Assembly (NCBI GenBank): GCA_963662265.2
Contig: CAXXHA010000029.1
Span: forward strand, 96,001-160,000
DNA length: 64,000 nucleotides
Direction of reading: 5' to 3'
Origin: Spirochaetia bacterium
GTDB taxonomy: Bacteria > Spirochaetota > Spirochaetia > CADAEX01
Part shown: one piece after another, positions 48,839 through 57,628 of the stretch
How positions within the stretch are numbered: the first letter of the stretch is position 1
Layout of the letters: each line of letters begins with the position of its first letter
Made by a program: the position numbers and the translations under genes
Notes under the pieces: generated by a model
Told to the model about the DNA's origin: nothing
The model's input: only the letters and a program-made list of their open reading frames with translations
Database searches by the model: none

Positions 48839-51292
48839 TTAACTGTCATACAGAATATTATGCACTGTTTTAGATAATGTGTAGATTGTATAAGGCTTCT
48901 GAAGAAAAGCGCTTATTCCGAGCTGTATAACTTCCTGTACACGGTTGTCATACTGGAATCCTGATGTTAATATCACTTTTATATCAGGATTTATCTCTTT
49001 CAGAAGGAGATATGCCTCCTTTCCCGACATTTCCGGCATTATCATATCCAGTATAACTGCTTTTATGCTGTTTTTATTTTCCTTGTATATATTCACACCC
49101 TCAAGACCGTTTTTAGCTTCCATGACGCTGTATCCGCATGTTTTAAGAATATCAGAGGCAGTTTTTCTTATGGCTTTTTCATCATCAATAATAAGTATAA
49201 GACCTTCACCACGCAGTCTTTCCTGTTTTATGTCATGATTTATCCCGATGATTTTATCATCAGTCAGAGCGGGAAGATATATATTGAATTTTGATCCGAA
49301 ACCAGGTTCTGAATATACATCGATAAAACCGTCATGCTGTTTGATTATGTTATATACCATGGACAGTCCCAGGCCGCTTCCTTCACCTTTTTTCTTTGTA
49401 GTGAAAAAAGGATTAAATATATTTGATATTGTTACTGAATTCATTCCTACACCTGTGTCTTTGACTGACAGGATGAAATATTTTATGTTTTCCATTGAAG
49501 GATGATTTTTCAGCATATATGAATCAGGGGTTATTTCCTTTACCGACACTGTAAGATCTCCTCCCCAGTGATCATCTTTGTTCCTCATAATTGTCATTGA
49601 ATGTTCTGAGTTGACACAGAAATTAAGAAGCGCCTGTTCCAGTAGATTCGAATCTCCTCTTATAAATGCTGGTTTTTCAGCAGGTATAATATTTATATTT
49701 ACCGATTTATCAAAAGAATTTTTTCCAATCTGTATTACATTATTAACAATTTCATTAAGATCAATTCTGCTGAAAATTATTTCCTGTTTCCTTGACAGTG
49801 CCAGAAGCTGGTTAACCATGTTTGATGCCCTGCTGCTGCATTCATTCATTGTGGATATGTATTCAGTAAGTTGGTCTGTTTCAATTTTTCCGTTATCAGA
49901 AAGGTTGTATTCTATCAGGGAAAGAGTTCCTATAATTCCTCCCAGCATATTATTGAAATCATGGGCAATACCTCCTGCAAGGGTTCCTACAGTCTCCATT
50001 TTCTGAGCCTGCCTGAGCTGTTCATCTGATTTCTGTATCGAATTAATCATGCTTTCCAGAATACTTCCAAGCTCCCTTGTTTCAAGTGTCCCGCTGACAG
50101 GAATATCTGAATTTTCTATACCGTTCTTTTCAATGTTCTGCGCAGCTATCATAAGTTTGTGGAGAGGTTTTGTAAGATTCTGTGAAAGTAAAAGAAGCAA
50201 TGCAGTGATGACACCTATGAAAAAAACTGAGAGGAATATAATATGTTTTGACAGTTTTTTGACAGGTTTTTCTATTTCATCCATATAAATCGATGATGCA
50301 ATATACCAGTCGAGTGGTTTAAAATAAATTATATATGCCTGTTTTCTGAACCGGAAATCGTTTTCAAATCCAGGTTTATCCCATAAATAATAAAAAGGAA
50401 TATCGGAAGTTTCAGATGCTTTAATTAGATCATCGAAAATATTTTTTCCTGTTGCAGGATTAATCATTTTCCTTACATCCTGCCCTTCAAGGGTTGGATG
50501 AATAAGCATGGTATTATCGCCAGTGAAAACATATATATAACCGTTGTCAGCTATTTGTACCTTTGAAAAGGTCTCTTTCAGTTCCTCGAGTACTGCATTT
50601 ATTCTGAGTTCCACATCTTTTTCAATATCATCGATATAGACACCGGTTCCTATAATCCAGTTCCATTTTTTATATAATTTCACATGTGATATTTTAGGCT
50701 GATCAGAAGACAATTCTTCCCCGAGCGGCTTGGGCCACAGGTATTCCACAAATCCTTCACCGGAACTGAGACATATATCAACAATTTCTTGAAAAAGGTT
50801 TTTACCGGAAACTGAAAAAGTATTGAAAACTTCATTGCTTAGTATTGTATTATTCAGTTCAGGCATAACAGGATGCATTATCATCTCTGGAAAAGGTTTT
50901 CCTGTATCATTGATCCAGAAATAGCCAACTCCGTTGTCATACCTGATTTTTTCTATATTTTTTAAAGCTTCAGTTTTTGCCTCTGTTTCTGATAAAACTC
51001 CATCTGAATATTTTTTATAATATGAATCAATGAGGTTGAAAACTATATTTGATATGTTTTTCAATTCTTTCTGTCGTTGTTTTTTCGATATATCTTTCTG
51101 GAAAAGTATGCTCTGATACTGGTTCTGGACGCTTAAAAATATAGAATTTACAAGGTTATGGGCATATTCATTCTGAGATTTAAGAATAGTTCTCTGGGTA
51201 GCAATCTGGACAAGGAAAATCATGATAAACAAAGTAAATATAATTGTTCCAAGTACATAGAATAAGAGTTTTGATCTCAGTGACTTAAACAT
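48839..51292 (-). CDS. Hybrid sensor histidine kinase (Cache_2 x2, HAMP, HisKA, HATPase, REC)
   Basis: GYFWIND..MIMHP, YLWPKP, WIIGTGVY Cache motifs; AGGIAHDFNN; PFFTTK..GSGLGL; ILDMIMP. Confidence 0.95.
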   Translation of the reverse strand: MFKSLRSKLLFYVLGTIIFTLFIMIFLVQIATQRTILKSQNEYAHNLVNSIFLSVQNQYQSILFQKDISKKQRQKELKNISNIVFNLIDSYYKKYSDGVLSETEAKTEALKNIEKIRYDNGVGYFWINDTGKPFPEMIMHPVMPELNNTILSNEVFNTFSVSGKNLFQEIVDICLSSGEGFVEYLWPKPLGEELSSDQPKISHVKLYKKWNWIIGTGVYIDDIEKDVELRINAVLEELKETFSKVQIADNGYIYVFTGDNTMLIHPTLEGQDVRKMINPATGKNIFDDLIKASETSDIPFYYLWDKPGFENDFRFRKQAYIIYFKPLDWYIASSIYMDEIEKPVKKLSKHIIFLSVFFIGVITALLLLLSQNLTKPLHKLMIAAQNIEKNGIENSDIPVSGTLETRELGSILESMINSIQKSDEQLRQAQKMETVGTLAGGIAHDFNNMLGGIIGTLSLIEYNLSDNGKIETDQLTEYISTMNECSSRASNMVNQLLALSRKQEIIFSRIDLNEIVNNVIQIGKNSFDKSVNINIIPAEKPAFIRGDSNLLEQALLNFCVNSEHSMTIMRNKDDHWGGDLTVSVKEITPDSYMLKNHPSMENIKYFILSVKDTGVGMNSVTISNIFNPFFTTKKKGEGSGLGLSMVYNIIKQHDGFIDVYSEPGFGSKFNIYLPALTDDKIIGINHDIKQERLRGEGLILIIDDEKAIRKTASDILKTCGYSVMEAKNGLEGVNIYKENKNSIKAVILDMIMPEMSGKEAYLLLKEINPDIKVILTSGFQYDNRVQEVIQLGISAFLQKPYTIYTLSKTVHNILYDS

Positions 51293-52800: not shown

Positions 52801-53652
52801 ATGGATAATTATATCTTTCTTGATACAGATAAAAAAACAGCCGGGTATTTTTCATCTCTGAAACAGAGAGGTATTGAAAAAACAGCAGTAGACCTGGAAG
52901 GGGAGTTTAATCTTCATCATTACGGGGAGCATTTGTGCCTTATACAGATTTATGACGGTGAACAATGTGTAATAATTGATCCGCTGAAAGTTTCTGTATC
53001 GCTGATAAAGAATTTTTTCGAAGACAGTTCAGTTCTTAAAATAATGTATGGCTGTTCCACAGACAGAACACTTCTCTACCGGAAATACGGAATAAGTTTA
53101 AATTCAGTAATGGACCTGTACCTGGCTTCGGAAATCCTCGATTATCAGAAGAAAGGGCTTGATTCGATGCTTGAATATCATTTTATACTGAATAAGAAGA
53201 ATAAAAAGAAATATCAGAAATATAACTGGATGAAGAGGCCTGTTCAAAAAGGAGCCCTCGAATATGCTTCAGAAGATGTTGCATATCTTTTCAAACTCAG
53301 TACTGTACTTATGAAAGAGATGTTTGAAAGGAATCTTATCGAAACATATATTCTGAAAAATAATGAATTGCAGATACGTCCGATTACAGAAGACCCGGTA
53401 CCCGGTATTCTTAAAAAAAGAAGATACAGAAACCTTTCCAAAAAAAGCAAGAAAATATTCCTGAGCCTCTTTGATATGAGGGATAAATATGCGGAAAAAC
53501 TTGACCTGCCGCCAAACAGTGTTTTTTCCAATGATGATTTATTCAGTCTGGCATCCTTTGCTTTAATTCCGGAAAAAACACCTGTTTCATCAAAAATGAA
53601 CAGTAAAATGCGAGAGGATATTTATGATGATATCAGGCGCTGTATAGGATGA
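52801..53652 (+). CDS. rnd: Ribonuclease D (DEDDy 3'-5' exonuclease plus HRDC)
   Basis: AVDLEGE, LCLIQI, NWMKRP, YASEDV, C-terminal HRDC (RDKYAEKLDLPP). Confidence 0.85.
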   Translation: MDNYIFLDTDKKTAGYFSSLKQRGIEKTAVDLEGEFNLHHYGEHLCLIQIYDGEQCVIIDPLKVSVSLIKNFFEDSSVLKIMYGCSTDRTLLYRKYGISLNSVMDLYLASEILDYQKKGLDSMLEYHFILNKKNKKKYQKYNWMKRPVQKGALEYASEDVAYLFKLSTVLMKEMFERNLIETYILKNNELQIRPITEDPVPGILKKRRYRNLSKKSKKIFLSLFDMRDKYAEKLDLPPNSVFSNDDLFSLASFALIPEKTPVSSKMNSKMREDIYDDIRRCIG

Positions 53653-53660
53653 ATTATTTT

Positions 53661-55076
53661 TTACATTTTTTTATGATAATATTCCGCAAATTTAAAATCT
53701 TCTTCCATGATGTGATCTTTAAGCCAGTTGTATAGAAATTCCTCAACATTATCGGAAAAAGCATAATTCCTGTTTCTGTTGAGTTCAATTACTTTCTCTG
53801 AGAGAATTCTGTGTTCTTTTATATGATCTTCGCTGAAGGGATAATCTGTTTCTCTGAAAAGATCTTCCTCATTTGCAAAATGTTCAATTGTAGATTCAAT
53901 CAGCCTGTCATAGTAAACAGTAAGTAGATCCTTGTCATATCCTTTTTTTATTGCTTTTGTAAAATTATCTGTGATTTCAAAAAGATTCTGATGTTCCTCG
54001 TCAATTGCCAGTATTCCTGTGTTGTAATCATCAGACCAGTCGAATAATGATGTTTTTGATCCCAATGAAAATATTTTTGATTTTTCAGAATCATTTACAA
54101 GCAGAAGCAGACTATCATTTTTCTCAAGTACAGTATCTGGTGAAGGATTATTTAATACAGTATTATCCATTTTTTTAAGAACAGGAATGCTTTCAGCTCC
54201 TGTCCTCTTTTTTACATCAGCTACAGTGATTTCCTCATCATTGAAGTGGTTGTATATTTTTAATGTATATCCCATGACTGACATCTGTTTGTAGTCAGAT
54301 GTTTCAATATTTTTATTTTTACTGAATTTCTTTTTAATCTGGTTGGCAATCTGTTCTCCCCCCATCTTAAGAGGATAAACAACCTTGTTTGCTCCTGCTC
54401 TTATCAACCTGTTTTCAATGTCTGATTTGTAACCTCGTGCAATAATAAAAAGATCAGGGTTTAACTCCCTGGCTGCAAGAGATACATACATATTAATGGA
54501 ATCATCACCCATGCTTACAACAATCCCCGATGCTTTTTTTATTCCAGCCTGGATAAGTGTTGAATCATAAGTTGCCTTTCCAATAACTGTCAGATAATTT
54601 CTTTTCTGTGCCCAGGAAGCAGTTTCCTCATTGTTTTCAACAACAACAAAAGGAATATCAGAGTCGTGGAGTGAATATGATATTGAACTTCCTATTCCAC
54701 CGAAACCGCATATAATGTAGTGCCCTTTGAGATTTTTAATTTTTTTAAGCATTTTGCTTTCTCCGAAATATCTTTTAAAGTTGTTTTCAACAAAAGCTCT
54801 TGCCAGCTGTGTTGCAAAAACAGCGGCAGAACCAAGTCCGCAGAAAATAAGAAATACAGTGAATATTCTTCCTGCATCTGACAGCGGTTTTGTTTCGCCG
54901 TATCCCACAGTGGTAATTGATATAGCTGTCATGTAGAAGCTGTCCATAAGTGTCCAGTCTTTCTCAATAAAATAATATCCGAAAGTCCCGGTGCAGAAAA
55001 TTATAATTATGAGTATCAGTATTTTAAATAAATTATATTTTTGTGATTCCATCTTTAATACATTTTCGTCTTTCAT
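53661..55076 (-). CDS. 2-TM K+ channel - RCK (TrkA-N) - bacteriohemerythrin fusion protein
   Basis: Selectivity filter TTVGYG; RCK GxGxxG (CGFGGIG); C-terminal hemerythrin WSDDYNTG..IDEEH, HFANEE, HIKEH, WLKDHIMEED. Confidence 0.93.
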   Translation of the reverse strand: MKDENVLKMESQKYNLFKILILIIIIFCTGTFGYYFIEKDWTLMDSFYMTAISITTVGYGETKPLSDAGRIFTVFLIFCGLGSAAVFATQLARAFVENNFKRYFGESKMLKKIKNLKGHYIICGFGGIGSSISYSLHDSDIPFVVVENNEETASWAQKRNYLTVIGKATYDSTLIQAGIKKASGIVVSMGDDSINMYVSLAARELNPDLFIIARGYKSDIENRLIRAGANKVVYPLKMGGEQIANQIKKKFSKNKNIETSDYKQMSVMGYTLKIYNHFNDEEITVADVKKRTGAESIPVLKKMDNTVLNNPSPDTVLEKNDSLLLLVNDSEKSKIFSLGSKTSLFDWSDDYNTGILAIDEEHQNLFEITDNFTKAIKKGYDKDLLTVYYDRLIESTIEHFANEEDLFRETDYPFSEDHIKEHRILSEKVIELNRNRNYAFSDNVEEFLYNWLKDHIMEEDFKFAEYYHKKM

Positions 55077-55183: not shown

Positions 55184-57628
55184 ATGATAAAAAAAATATC
55201 AGTATGTTTTTTATATACATTTCTTTTCATATTTTCAACTGTTTCAGTTTATTCAGATGTAGATATAAGCCTTTTATGCCAATCATTATTCAGTGAAGTT
55301 AAAGTACCTATTCTTATTATTGATACTGATACATCTGTAATAGTTGAGCTGAACAAAGCTGCTGTTGATTTTTACGGATATGATTATGATGAAATCAAAG
55401 GTATGAATATCAGTGAAATCAATACAATGAGTGCTGAAGATGTCAATTCGGAAATTAATAATACAGTAAATGAAAAAAGAAATCATTTTATATTCAGGCA
55501 CAGACTTTCTGGGGGAAAAATACGGGATGTAGAAGTTTATTCATCTCCTGTTGAAATCGGGGGGAAAAAATATCTTACATCTTTCATACATGACATAACT
55601 GAAAGAAAAGATATGGAAAATAAACTTAAAGCCAGTGAAGAAAGGGGCGCAATTGCGGAAAGTTTTGCAAGATACGGCAACTGGGTTTTAAATATGAATA
55701 ACGGAAATTTTACCGGTTCCGAAGGGGCAAAAAAAATATTCGGATATGAAGATGATGTTTTTACAATAGCTGAAGTTTATGAGGTAATACTTCCTGAATA
55801 CAGGGAAATGATTGATAGTGCGTTACGAGAACTTGTAAGTTCAGATATTCATTATAATATAAGGTACAAAATAAAGAGGAAAACTGACGGAAGAATAATT
55901 GATATAGCATCGACTGCCAGATATGATCATGATAAAAATACAGTTTTCGGCATTATTCAGGATATAACCGAGGAAACAGCAGCATATGATCTCCTTTATT
56001 TCAGGACCTCTATATTTCTCTCAGTGCTTTTTATTATTCTTTTCATACAGTTTGTAGTAATTGTTTTCTATATCCGGGCCAACAATATGAAAAAAGCTGC
56101 ACAGGCGACTCTGGTTGAGAAATCAAGGGAATTTGACAGGTTTTTCAGCCTGAAATCAGATATTTTATGTGTCTTCGATAAAAACGGATGCCTGATTAAG
56201 ATAAATGAAGCATGTGAGAATCTGATGGGAGTATCTATGGAAGATGCTGTTGAATCTGATATTTATTCATATATTGATACGGATGACAGGGATAAATTTT
56301 CAGCTGCACTTCAAGCAATAACAGAAGATGGAGATACTTCAACTTCGGAAGTTGCTGTTATCAGCAATGATAACGGGAAAAGATATGTAGAGTGGAATAT
56401 AAGCCGTGACAGCGGTTTTTTCTACGGTGTTGCCCGGGATGTGACTGAAAGAAGAATCAATGCTGAAAAGCGGCTGAAAATGGAGAAACAGATACTTCAG
56501 ACTCAGAAACTTGAAAGCCTTGGCGTTCTTGCAGGAGGTATTGCCCATGATTTTAATAACATACTTATGGCAGTTCTCGGCTATACAGAACTTGCACGGA
56601 TGGAAATAAGTTCGGCATCACCTGCATACGGCAATCTCAGGGAAATTGAAGCTGCATCAAAAAAAGCCTCAAGGCTGTGCAGCCAGATGCTTGCATATAC
56701 CGGTTGTGCCTCCTATAACCTTGAAAAGGTTAATATAAATAAACTGATAAATGAAATGATTCATCTTGTAAAAACACTTATAACCAAGAAAGCTGTTCTG
56801 AATTTAAGCCTGGAGGAAAATATATCAGCTATTGACGCAGATCCGTCACAGATAAGCCAGGTGATTATGAATCTTATAATAAACAGTTCTGATGCGATTG
56901 GTGAAAGTAACGGAGTTATTTCAATTTCGACAGGTTCATCTTTTTTTGATGTTGATTATCTGTCGAAAACAACAACATATGAAAATCCTGAACCTGGAAA
57001 ATATGTTTATTTTGAAATTTCCGATACAGGATGCGGTATTTCTTCCGGTGAAGTGGAAAGGGTTTTTGAACCGTTTTATACAACTAAATTTACAGGCAGG
57101 GGACTGGGGCTCGCGGCGGTTCAGGGAATTGTCCGGTCGCATAAAGGTTCAATAAAAGTTTACAGTGAAGAGGGCAAGGGAACCAACTTCAAGGTGATGT
57201 TTCCTGAGGCTGACAACGGTAAGAAAATTTCAGAACCTGATGAAAATGGAGAAAAAAGCAGCTGGAAAGGTTCCGGCACTGTACTGTTTGTTGATGACGA
57301 AGATACTCTTAGATTTCTCGGCTCGGATATGCTGAAGAAACTGGGTTACAATGTTGTAACAGCAATTGACGGAAGTGATGCTGTCCGGAAATACAGGGAA
57401 CTGAAAAGCGAAATTGATTTTGTCATACTTGATCTTACAATGCCTAACATGGACGGCAGCCAGGCTTTGAGTGAAATTAGAAATATAAATAACGATGTTG
57501 ATGTTATTGTTGCAAGCGGATACAGCTATAATGATATTGTTGCAAGATTTTCCGGTAAAAATATTTCCGGAATAATACAGAAACCCTATTCAATGGATAA
57601 AATAAGGGAAATACTTGAAAACATATAA
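55184..57628 (+). CDS. Hybrid sensor histidine kinase (signal/TM, PAS, PAS, TM, PAS, HisKA, HATPase, REC)
   Basis: NKAAVDFYGY and HDITERK PAS/PAC motifs; AGGIAHDFNN; PFYTTKFTGRGLGL; ILDLTMP. Confidence 0.95.
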   Translation: MIKKISVCFLYTFLFIFSTVSVYSDVDISLLCQSLFSEVKVPILIIDTDTSVIVELNKAAVDFYGYDYDEIKGMNISEINTMSAEDVNSEINNTVNEKRNHFIFRHRLSGGKIRDVEVYSSPVEIGGKKYLTSFIHDITERKDMENKLKASEERGAIAESFARYGNWVLNMNNGNFTGSEGAKKIFGYEDDVFTIAEVYEVILPEYREMIDSALRELVSSDIHYNIRYKIKRKTDGRIIDIASTARYDHDKNTVFGIIQDITEETAAYDLLYFRTSIFLSVLFIILFIQFVVIVFYIRANNMKKAAQATLVEKSREFDRFFSLKSDILCVFDKNGCLIKINEACENLMGVSMEDAVESDIYSYIDTDDRDKFSAALQAITEDGDTSTSEVAVISNDNGKRYVEWNISRDSGFFYGVARDVTERRINAEKRLKMEKQILQTQKLESLGVLAGGIAHDFNNILMAVLGYTELARMEISSASPAYGNLREIEAASKKASRLCSQMLAYTGCASYNLEKVNINKLINEMIHLVKTLITKKAVLNLSLEENISAIDADPSQISQVIMNLIINSSDAIGESNGVISISTGSSFFDVDYLSKTTTYENPEPGKYVYFEISDTGCGISSGEVERVFEPFYTTKFTGRGLGLAAVQGIVRSHKGSIKVYSEEGKGTNFKVMFPEADNGKKISEPDENGEKSSWKGSGTVLFVDDEDTLRFLGSDMLKKLGYNVVTAIDGSDAVRKYRELKSEIDFVILDLTMPNMDGSQALSEIRNINNDVDVIVASGYSYNDIVARFSGKNISGIIQKPYSMDKIREILENI

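Follow-up and report, generated by a model that had tools for sequence, protein, structure and literature searches.

A spirochaetal gene for a potassium channel pore, an RCK domain and a bacteriohemerythrin in one polypeptide: a candidate redox-responsive channel

The gene and its domain architecture

Here, we describe a gene in a window of 64,000 nucleotides from the genome of a Spirochaetia bacterium (assembly GCA_963662265.2, contig CAXXHA010000029.1, positions 96,001 to 160,000 of the forward strand); all coordinates below are those of this window. The gene is a single uninterrupted open reading frame (ORF) on the minus strand (53661..55076, with the stop codon at 53661-53663) and codes for a protein of 471 amino acids (aa), in which a potassium channel pore, an RCK domain and a bacteriohemerythrin are combined in one polypeptide. 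Three Pfam domains were found above their curated cut-offs, namely Ion_trans_2 at residues 22-96 (E 9.4e-18), TrkA_N at residues 120-235 (E 4.5e-28) and Hemerythrin at residues 354-465 (E 3.8e-10). The last of these was also recognized by the NCBIfam bacteriohemerythrin model NF033749 at residues 344-466 (92.3 bits, cut-off 84) and by TIGR02481 (93.9 bits, cut-off 51.75). Together with a motif scan, these matches confirm the three-domain polypeptide that had been proposed from the DNA sequence in the original prediction, and the selectivity filter TTVGYG, the GxGxxG nucleotide motif and all seven di-iron ligands were found at the residues named there.

The pore module (residues 16-97, 54786..55031, minus strand, as all features of the gene) consists of an outer transmembrane (TM) helix, a pore helix, the selectivity filter and an inner TM helix. 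Two hydrophobic segments are present at about residues 16-34 and 71-89, and the motif scan placed the filter TTVGYG at residues 55-60 (54897..54914), with TVGYG starting at residue 56. In an AlphaFold2 model, for which 104 homologues were used as input (mean pLDDT 89.7, pTM 0.50), this region is built from helices 2-37, 43-55 and 67-114, that is, two TM helices and a pore helix. It is followed by the N-lobe of the RCK domain, a TrkA_N/KTN-type Rossmann fold (residues 120-235, 54372..54719), which is supported by the Pfam match, by matches to GsuK and MthK and by the model. The N-lobe contains the nucleotide-binding loop GFGGIG (residues 124-129, 54690..54707, motif scan) and, by sequence position at the end of strand 2, the acidic residue E147 (54636-54638). 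The model shows a beta-rich lobe, the putative RCK C-lobe, at residues 265-338 (54063..54284) with strands 270-276, 296-301, 307-309 and 322-328 and helices 285-292 and 329-338, and the TrkA_C-like assignment agrees with an alignment to the second RCK domain (RCK2) of GsuK; the Pfam match to TrkA_C at residues 286-331 is weak and below its cut-off (E 0.011, 16.1 bits, cut-off 27). The C-lobe had been described as reduced, a claim that found little support, as the lobe comprises about 75 residues and the GsuK RCK2 alignment reaches residue 337; on the model, it is divergent rather than clearly reduced. A short linker, which is poorly conserved and modelled with low confidence (residues 339-346, 54039..54062; pLDDT below 50 at residues 337-340), leads to the bacteriohemerythrin (residues 347-471, 53664..54038). 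This domain starts with the N-terminal loop W347-S-D-D and continues as a four-helix bundle (helices 356-377, 382-410, 415-431 and 444-470 of the model), and all seven di-iron ligands, H362, H399, E403, H418, H422, H455 and D460, were retrieved from the translation by a script.

The annotated ORF might be slightly too long at its 5' end. Homologues from sister species begin at the residue equivalent to M9 (55050..55052), and the true start may therefore be this codon (ATG 55052-55050). An obvious Shine-Dalgarno motif was seen upstream of neither candidate start ATG, the first one or that of M9.

Recurrence and conservation of the fusion

A trivial explanation for this architecture would be an artefact, in which a potassium channel gene and an adjacent hemerythrin gene were joined into a chimera during assembly or gene calling, a concern that had already been raised in the original prediction. 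The ORF is uninterrupted, and a 1901-base stretch is spanned with 0-1 differences by single contigs from sequencing runs X1 and X2, which belong to one sample, and X4, which belongs to the other sample/study. Single contigs cover the entire gene plus both flanks, and one more contig covers 53658-55300; the best-matching assembly contig may be the window's own source. Nothing was found that speaks for a chimera; one X4 contig with a depth of 2.8 lacks one base at 53663, inside the stop codon, which is possibly an error and, if real, would alter the C-terminal end. As the junction is spanned in two samples, and several sources contribute a total of 104 full-length proteins with the same architecture, which also occurs in at least nine loci of named genome records, we reject the one-off chimera and consider an artefact of this kind extremely improbable. 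The runs of the second sample, X4 and X5, also carry a G>A substitution at 54420 within the gene.

Homologues were collected in several ways. In a search of 5.8 billion proteins, the 8000 candidates sharing most words with the query were scored, and the same three Pfam domains were present in 93 of the best 120 of 2017 matches, the query included. These 120 were pooled with the matches listed from a search of representatives (n=262), and the two halves of the query were compared with the pool separately by BLAST, which detected channel and hemerythrin together in 109 proteins, 104 of which are at least 420 aa long. These 104 full-length fusions among the matches listed are the homologues on which all alignment counts below are based. 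A HMMER search against 1.84 billion representatives at 50% identity yielded 15 proteins, among the 150 matches listed, whose match reaches residue 465 or beyond, and two further representatives are fragments that include the hemerythrin part; because of these 15 representatives, we regard the fusion family as small but real. By name, the carriers are metagenome-assembled genomes (MAGs) of Spirochaetes, Spirochaetales and Spirochaetota, Fibrobacteria, a Desulfovibrio sp. and the cultured Desulfovibrio inopinatus, and their proteins bear automatic labels such as 'bacteriohemerythrin', 'voltage-gated potassium channel' or 'hypothetical'. Lastly, contigs were scanned with patterns from the pore region, which is not a census, and of the 80 loci kept at least nine have a match that continues into the hemerythrin. 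They belong to Spirochaetaceae (two), Sediminispirochaeta, Spirochaetia (two), Maridesulfovibrio, Humidesulfovibrio, a Myxococcales MAG and a Fibrobacteraceae MAG. The carriers are mainly spirochaetes, joined by assemblies of Desulfovibrionales, Fibrobacteraceae and Myxococcales, with many anaerobes among them. Two of these loci have peculiarities of their own. The homologue in the Humidesulfovibrio MAG (L028, 3923-5405) is split into ORFs of 221 and 252 aa, reflecting either pseudogene formation by a frameshift or an error in the assembly. In the Myxococcales MAG (L020, 3194-5479), the frame of 761 aa exceeds the match by about 270 residues at the N-terminus, which may be a real extension or a mere open frame in high-GC DNA.

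The functional positions of all three modules are highly conserved among the 104 homologues. No substitution occurs at the di-iron ligands H399, H422, H455 and D460; H362, E403 and H418 are present in 102 sequences each, and W347 of the N-terminal loop in 101. In the filter, T56 and G58 are present in every sequence, and position 59 is tyrosine in 65 and phenylalanine in 39. The glycine loop is similarly preserved, with G124 in all 104, G126 in 95 and G129 in 96 sequences, and position 147 is glutamate or aspartate in 101. The segment between V327 and W347 is 9-35 residues long (median 19) and rich in E/D, and the linker is the least conserved part of the protein (majority fraction 0.21). Across seven homologues of increasing distance, identity to the query decreases in step for the hemerythrin (from 60 to 31%) and the RCK domain (from 66 to 38%), as expected from a single old fusion followed by vertical co-divergence. 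The ligands of the hemerythrin thus appear to be under purifying selection, which supports the sensory function proposed below.

Relation to MthK and GsuK

Among proteins of solved structure, GsuK was the best sequence match (E 2.3e-29), with its RCK2 (residues 352-555) aligned over residues 121-337, a range that covers both the glycine loop and the C-lobe. MthK matched residues 17-248 (E 2.7e-22), with an alignment (MthK 21-244) that takes in the pore module, KtrA was matched as well, and full-length MthK (6oly) was the top match of the model in Foldseek (E 4.4e-18). Like MthK (1lnq, 6oly), the channel described here has a 2-TM pore with a TVGYG filter, followed by one RCK domain per subunit. 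In contrast, MthK is gated by Ca2+, has the residues GWSES in place of GFGGIG and ends after the RCK C-lobe, where the protein studied here continues into the hemerythrin. The Ca2+ ligands of MthK, which we take to be D184, E210 and E212 (a numbering that fits the chain numbering of the alignment), correspond to V187, R214 and Y216, and the triad is hence absent. It is likewise replaced in the 104 homologues, which have I, V or L at position 187, R (85 sequences) or Q (15 sequences) at position 214 and Y at position 216 in 52 sequences. Due to this replacement, Ca2+ gating of the MthK type is not expected and was rejected for the equivalent site, and judging by these alignments the protein has an MthK-like build but is not an orthologue of the Ca2+-gated MthK.

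With GsuK (4gx0, 4gx1, 4gx2, 4gx5), the channel shares an RCK domain of the nucleotide type; by their titles, entries 4gx2 and 4gx1 show NAD- and ADP-bound GsuK, respectively. GsuK differs in having two tandem RCK domains per subunit and no hemerythrin, whereas here one RCK domain is combined with one hemerythrin. The GFGGIG loop and E147 form what looks like a KTN/RCK nucleotide pocket as in KtrA and GsuK, and nucleotide binding is predicted. Since the RCK domain keeps a pocket of its own, the hemerythrin probably does not gate the channel alone but modulates it as a second input.

A predicted internal translation start

A further likeness to MthK lies between the pore and the RCK domain. A GGAG motif (54764-54761) is followed after 8 nt by the ATG of M109 (54752-54750), and together they form a predicted internal start (54750..54764) for a soluble subunit comprising residues 109-471. 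M109 is located 15 residues ahead of the glycine loop and is methionine in 94 of the 104 homologues. At the DNA level, a Shine-Dalgarno core (GGAG, GAGG or AGGA) is present 5-16 nt upstream in eight of the nine hemerythrin-fused loci, and the ninth has GAGAAG. Of 61 distinct loci for related channels, 39 have ATG at this codon, 13 have TTG and one has GTG, which makes 53 start-capable, and the core was found in 47 of the 61; where the residue reads leucine, the codon is mostly the start-capable TTG. A Fisher test of methionine against the presence of the Shine-Dalgarno core gave p = 0.55, a comparison that is ill-posed as most of the non-methionine codons are TTG or GTG. The motif is kept where the encoded residues differ (W-R-K in locus L022), which points to selection on the RNA. 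The pattern as a whole predicts that a conserved internal start yields a soluble RCK-hemerythrin subunit. In MthK, too, a conserved start codon of this kind precedes the first RCK strand by about 15 residues, and the structure paper on MthK reportedly describes how an internal methionine gives rise to soluble RCK subunits, which complete an octameric gating ring.

The hemerythrin domain and its precedents

The best solved match to the hemerythrin is DcrH-Hr from Desulfovibrio vulgaris (2avk, 2awy, 2awc), to which it aligns end to end (chain residues 6-131, E 4.1e-11) with all seven ligands of the canonical set H-HxxxE-HxxxH-HxxxxD and the N-terminal loop motif W-S-(D/E)-D in register. Like the channel, DcrH is a membrane signalling protein of an anaerobe with a C-terminal hemerythrin, but its output is a methyl-accepting chemotaxis signalling domain and not an ion channel. 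According to a 2022 review, DcrH-Hr binds O2 with a Kd (dissociation constant) of 0.3 uM, and the inter-domain N-terminal loop, which is disordered in the deoxy state, has an ordered structure in the met state. As the hemerythrin is C-terminal as in DcrH, the redox-sensitive loop would be the very segment that is tied to the RCK C-lobe.

The same review names five features of bacterial hemerythrin sensors: conserved ligands, fusion to a functional domain, a large tunnel, rapid autoxidation and an O2/redox-dependent output. In the protein described here, we found the conserved ligand set, a bacteriohemerythrin four-helix domain and fusion in one polypeptide. That hemerythrin domains serve as O2/redox sensors in a chemoreceptor and in enzymes of cyclic di-GMP metabolism, as stated in the original prediction, is borne out by two reviews, which also report that in VcBhr-DGC and Bhr-HD-GYP the fused output is set by the redox state of the di-iron site, with the reduced form being more active. 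In these proteins, too, a hemerythrin with canonical ligands controls a fused output; they differ from the channel in that their hemerythrin is N-terminal and they are soluble enzymes, with catalysis instead of ion conduction as the output. Among membrane ion transporters, the 2022 review names a C-terminal hemerythrin-type domain only for the P1B-5 ATPase, and the fused forms listed there are the chemoreceptor, the c-di-GMP enzymes and this ATPase only; the ATPase is an ATP-driven metal pump with the variant ligands H-HxxxE-HxE-HxxxxD.

The P1B-5 ATPase also leads to a first alternative to O2/redox sensing, in which the hemerythrin is loaded only when labile Fe2+ is available and the channel tracks the iron status of the cell. 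Iron sensing has been proposed for FBXL5 and BRUTUS and possibly for P1B-5 ATPases, whose hemerythrin may sense O2/redox or iron according to the review, and an abstract on plant BRUTUS likewise describes iron-sensing hemerythrin domains (PMC12022348). However, the ligand set found here is the canonical one of O2 carriers and DcrH and not the P1B-5 variant, the closest structure is the O2-binding DcrH-Hr, and no gene for iron uptake or storage recurs next to the channel gene in 10 fusion loci. A physiological link between K+ conductance and iron is also not obvious, and we regard iron sensing as rather unlikely.

The domain could also respond to another small oxidant or gas, such as NO or H2O2, and not to O2 itself. 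Hemerythrin-like proteins that react with NO or H2O2 are described in the abstracts of several papers (PMC8913304, PMC11744678, PMC4295536), and the review notes that bacterial hemerythrin sensors autoxidize fast and may be sensors of redox more than of O2. These NO- and H2O2-reactive examples are mycobacterial hemerythrin-like proteins, however, which belong to a different class, and the nearest structure to the domain studied here is again DcrH-Hr, with the full canonical ligand set. We consider this alternative rather improbable as well; it overlaps with the redox half of the O2/redox interpretation and differs from it only in the physiological ligand.

Evolution of the C-terminal domain

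The relatives of the channel indicate that the position behind the RCK domain has been used more than once. We calculated a maximum-likelihood tree of the pore and RCK core with a 'quick' method, an unrooted tree of 100 rows with SH-aLRT values as the only branch support. The rows comprise 44 of the 104 fusions (the first 14 and every third one), 38 short forms and 18 longer receiver-type forms, of which 10 were checked with Pfam and eight were assigned to this type from their length. All 44 fusions fall inside one clade of 64 rows (SH-aLRT 97), and the receiver-type channels branch immediately outside of it. A Response_reg domain starting at about residue 333-350 was detected in all 10 of the longer relatives without hemerythrin that were scanned (P0129, P0130, P0134, P0136, P0137, P0148, P0153, P0160, P0179 and P0233), with an Hpt domain added in four. 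In these channels the pore and RCK core is 35-47% identical to that of the protein described here and the additional domain sits at the same site, but the predicted input is two-component phosphorylation instead of a metal centre. A literature search returned no paper describing pore-RCK-receiver K+ channels, which, judging by their domains, would be K+ channels controlled by phosphorylation. The presence of a receiver domain at the same site in the nearest relatives suggests that the C-terminus is a slot for signalling inputs, which is the strongest comparative argument for a regulatory hemerythrin.

Host genome and gene neighbourhood

The host assembly (3.77 Mb, 90.6% complete) gave no match to heme-copper oxidase subunit I (COX1) or cytochrome bd, and contains three rubrerythrin and four PFOR matches above cut-off. 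The host thus looks anaerobic, as had been claimed before, and fits a fermentative anaerobe, with the reservation that the absence of oxidases from an incomplete assembly is not proof.

When the ORFs flanking the gene in the window and in 10 fusion loci were compared all against all, no shared neighbour was found except in the near-identical pair L016/L017. Divergent from the channel gene lies a gene for a hybrid sensor kinase (55184-57628, plus strand) with three PAS domains, HisKA, HATPase and a receiver. A second hybrid sensor kinase with dCache, HAMP, HisKA, HATPase and receiver domains is encoded at 48839-51292 (minus strand). On the other side of the channel gene, a gene for an RNase D-like 3'-5' exonuclease (52801-53652, plus strand, 283 aa, DNA_pol_A_exo1) is located between the channel gene and a DUF1456 gene.

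The PAS-kinase-receiver neighbour is common only to the window and to the sister species G001, in which a syntenic orthologue of 334 aa (L005, 72% identical) lacks the hemerythrin. This short form sits between the same PAS-kinase gene and DUF1456 gene as the channel of the window, and the locus is without both the hemerythrin coding part and the exonuclease gene, both of which may have been removed by a single deletion or rearrangement. Another short form (L019, 326 aa) is followed directly by a gene for an MFS transporter. A second congener, G002, has the full fusion with 65% identity in a different neighbourhood.

Discussion

In this work, we identified a potassium channel-like protein with a C-terminal bacteriohemerythrin. 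We propose, as a reading that we hold to be fairly probable, that it is an RCK-gated K+ channel with two inputs, one from a nucleotide in the Rossmann pocket and one from the O2/redox state of the di-iron site, the latter of which would be conveyed to the gating ring through the N-terminal loop of the hemerythrin. Iron binding, O2 reactivity and the coupling to gating including its sign are points that we infer and regard as plausible. Four full-length subunits would form the pore, and soluble RCK-hemerythrin subunits started at M109 would probably complete an octameric gating ring as in MthK, resulting in eight hemerythrins per ring. The Rossmann pocket with GFGGIG and E147 would bind a nucleotide such as NAD(H), ATP or ADP. 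In the anoxic cytoplasm, the di-iron site would be diferrous, and O2 or another oxidant would convert it to the oxy and then to the met form. We hypothesize that this oxidation would order the N-terminal loop, as in DcrH, and as the loop is tethered to the RCK C-lobe, an altered packing of the hemerythrins on the ring could shift the open probability of the channel. The sign of this effect cannot be predicted. In this way, an anaerobe might translate oxygen or redox stress into changes of K+ flux and membrane potential.

Several observations weigh against this proposal. The fusion is rare, being present in two of 41 close relatives with the window's own genome counted, and no further fusion was found in 400 other genomes drawn evenly across the phylum. 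In the tree, 20 short proteins without hemerythrin are nested at several places within the fusion clade, and the hemerythrin label needs at least seven changes on well-supported branches. Some of the short rows may be truncated gene calls, and one is labelled partial, but two short forms that were inspected stop at real stop codons with no hemerythrin ORF downstream. The simplest reading of these sequences is one gain of the hemerythrin followed by repeated loss, a direction that follows from the nesting only, as the tree is unrooted, and repeated loss would mean that the sensor is dispensable for the channel. In addition, the linker is variable, acidic and of low pLDDT, and hence no rigid transmission element of the signalling-helix type, and the relative placement of the domains in the model is uncertain (pTM 0.50). 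The variable linker, the uncertain placement and the repeated loss make a state-dependent docking of a tethered domain likelier than a rigid relay. A docking prediction for the RCK domain (residues 110-336) and the hemerythrin (residues 341-471) gave a score of 0.00 against a mark of 0.32, and we give it no weight either way.

The same observations bear on the possibility that the hemerythrin is a passenger without signalling function, which acts as an O2 scavenger or buffer close to the membrane, shields the channel or serves as an oligomerization or stability module, with gating by the nucleotide site of the RCK domain only. The flexible linker of variable length, the low-confidence domain placement and the retention of the channel after repeated loss of the hemerythrin would all be in line with such a role, and protective single-domain bacterial hemerythrins exist, as described in the abstract of PMC4257069. 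On the other hand, the same slot holds a receiver domain in all 10 relatives scanned, and members of at least four phylum-level groups have retained the fusion with its ligands intact, down to 31-36% identity. A stoichiometric scavenger on a low-copy channel would also have negligible capacity, and the host already possesses a free-standing hemerythrin gene for such roles. This gene (contig C39, 69227-69619) is the only other hemerythrin gene of the host and is 28% identical to the domain of the channel; its open frame comprises 159 aa, and the 131-aa part scanned matches Pfam Hemerythrin. We therefore think that a passenger role is unlikely and continue to favour the two-input channel.

To place the architecture in context, we searched the literature and found no description of a hemerythrin-K+ channel fusion, a search whose scope did not extend to the full architecture list in S2 Fig of PMC4919030; within these bounds, the earlier statement that no channel with this architecture has been characterized holds. 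The 2016 survey concerned (PMC4919030) reports 56 hemerythrin architectures and shows those with at least three sequences in Fig 4, and a hemerythrin-channel architecture may be listed in its S2 Fig. The terms channel, potassium, TrkA and transporter do not occur in the text of PMC9388753, and in that of PMC1592074 hemerythrin and TrkA-C are named only in separate domain lists. Proteins of this architecture do occur in public databases, where they bear automatic names, and the architecture has therefore been seen but not studied. Each of the three modules is familiar; their combination, which has no described precedent in the literature searched, provides a new output for hemerythrin sensors and a new input for RCK channels.

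One might go further and speculate that the protein is, as the first case of its kind, an ion channel into which a non-heme di-iron O2 sensor has been built. O2 entering the cell would then oxidize the eight hemerythrins of the ring and switch the K+ conductance within seconds, and the resulting change in potential would steer motility away from oxygen while bypassing the chemoreceptor-CheA route. We consider this extended scenario doubtful. Older work on Spirochaeta aurantia, judging by titles alone, is said to deal with a role of the membrane potential in chemosensory signalling.

In the same extended scenario, the fusion would, together with its sisters carrying receiver domains, make up a broader class of 'signal-transduction K+ channels', whose RCK ring serves as the output for bacterial sensory modules. 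In animals, O2-sensitive K+ channels respond to oxygen by indirect routes that involve heme oxygenase and CO, redox-active cysteines or metabolism. In a channel equipped with an O2-binding metal centre of its own, the conversion of a gas signal into an electrical one could be studied directly and in a simple form. The soluble RCK-hemerythrin ring would moreover be a tractable system to study how the state of a di-iron site reaches a partner domain, a signal transfer that is named as the next challenge in the 2022 review. Natural orthologues without hemerythrin, such as the 334-aa form of the sister species, could serve as ready controls. For bacterial physiology, the fusion makes it testable whether anaerobes react quickly to oxygen by way of their K+ conductance and membrane potential.

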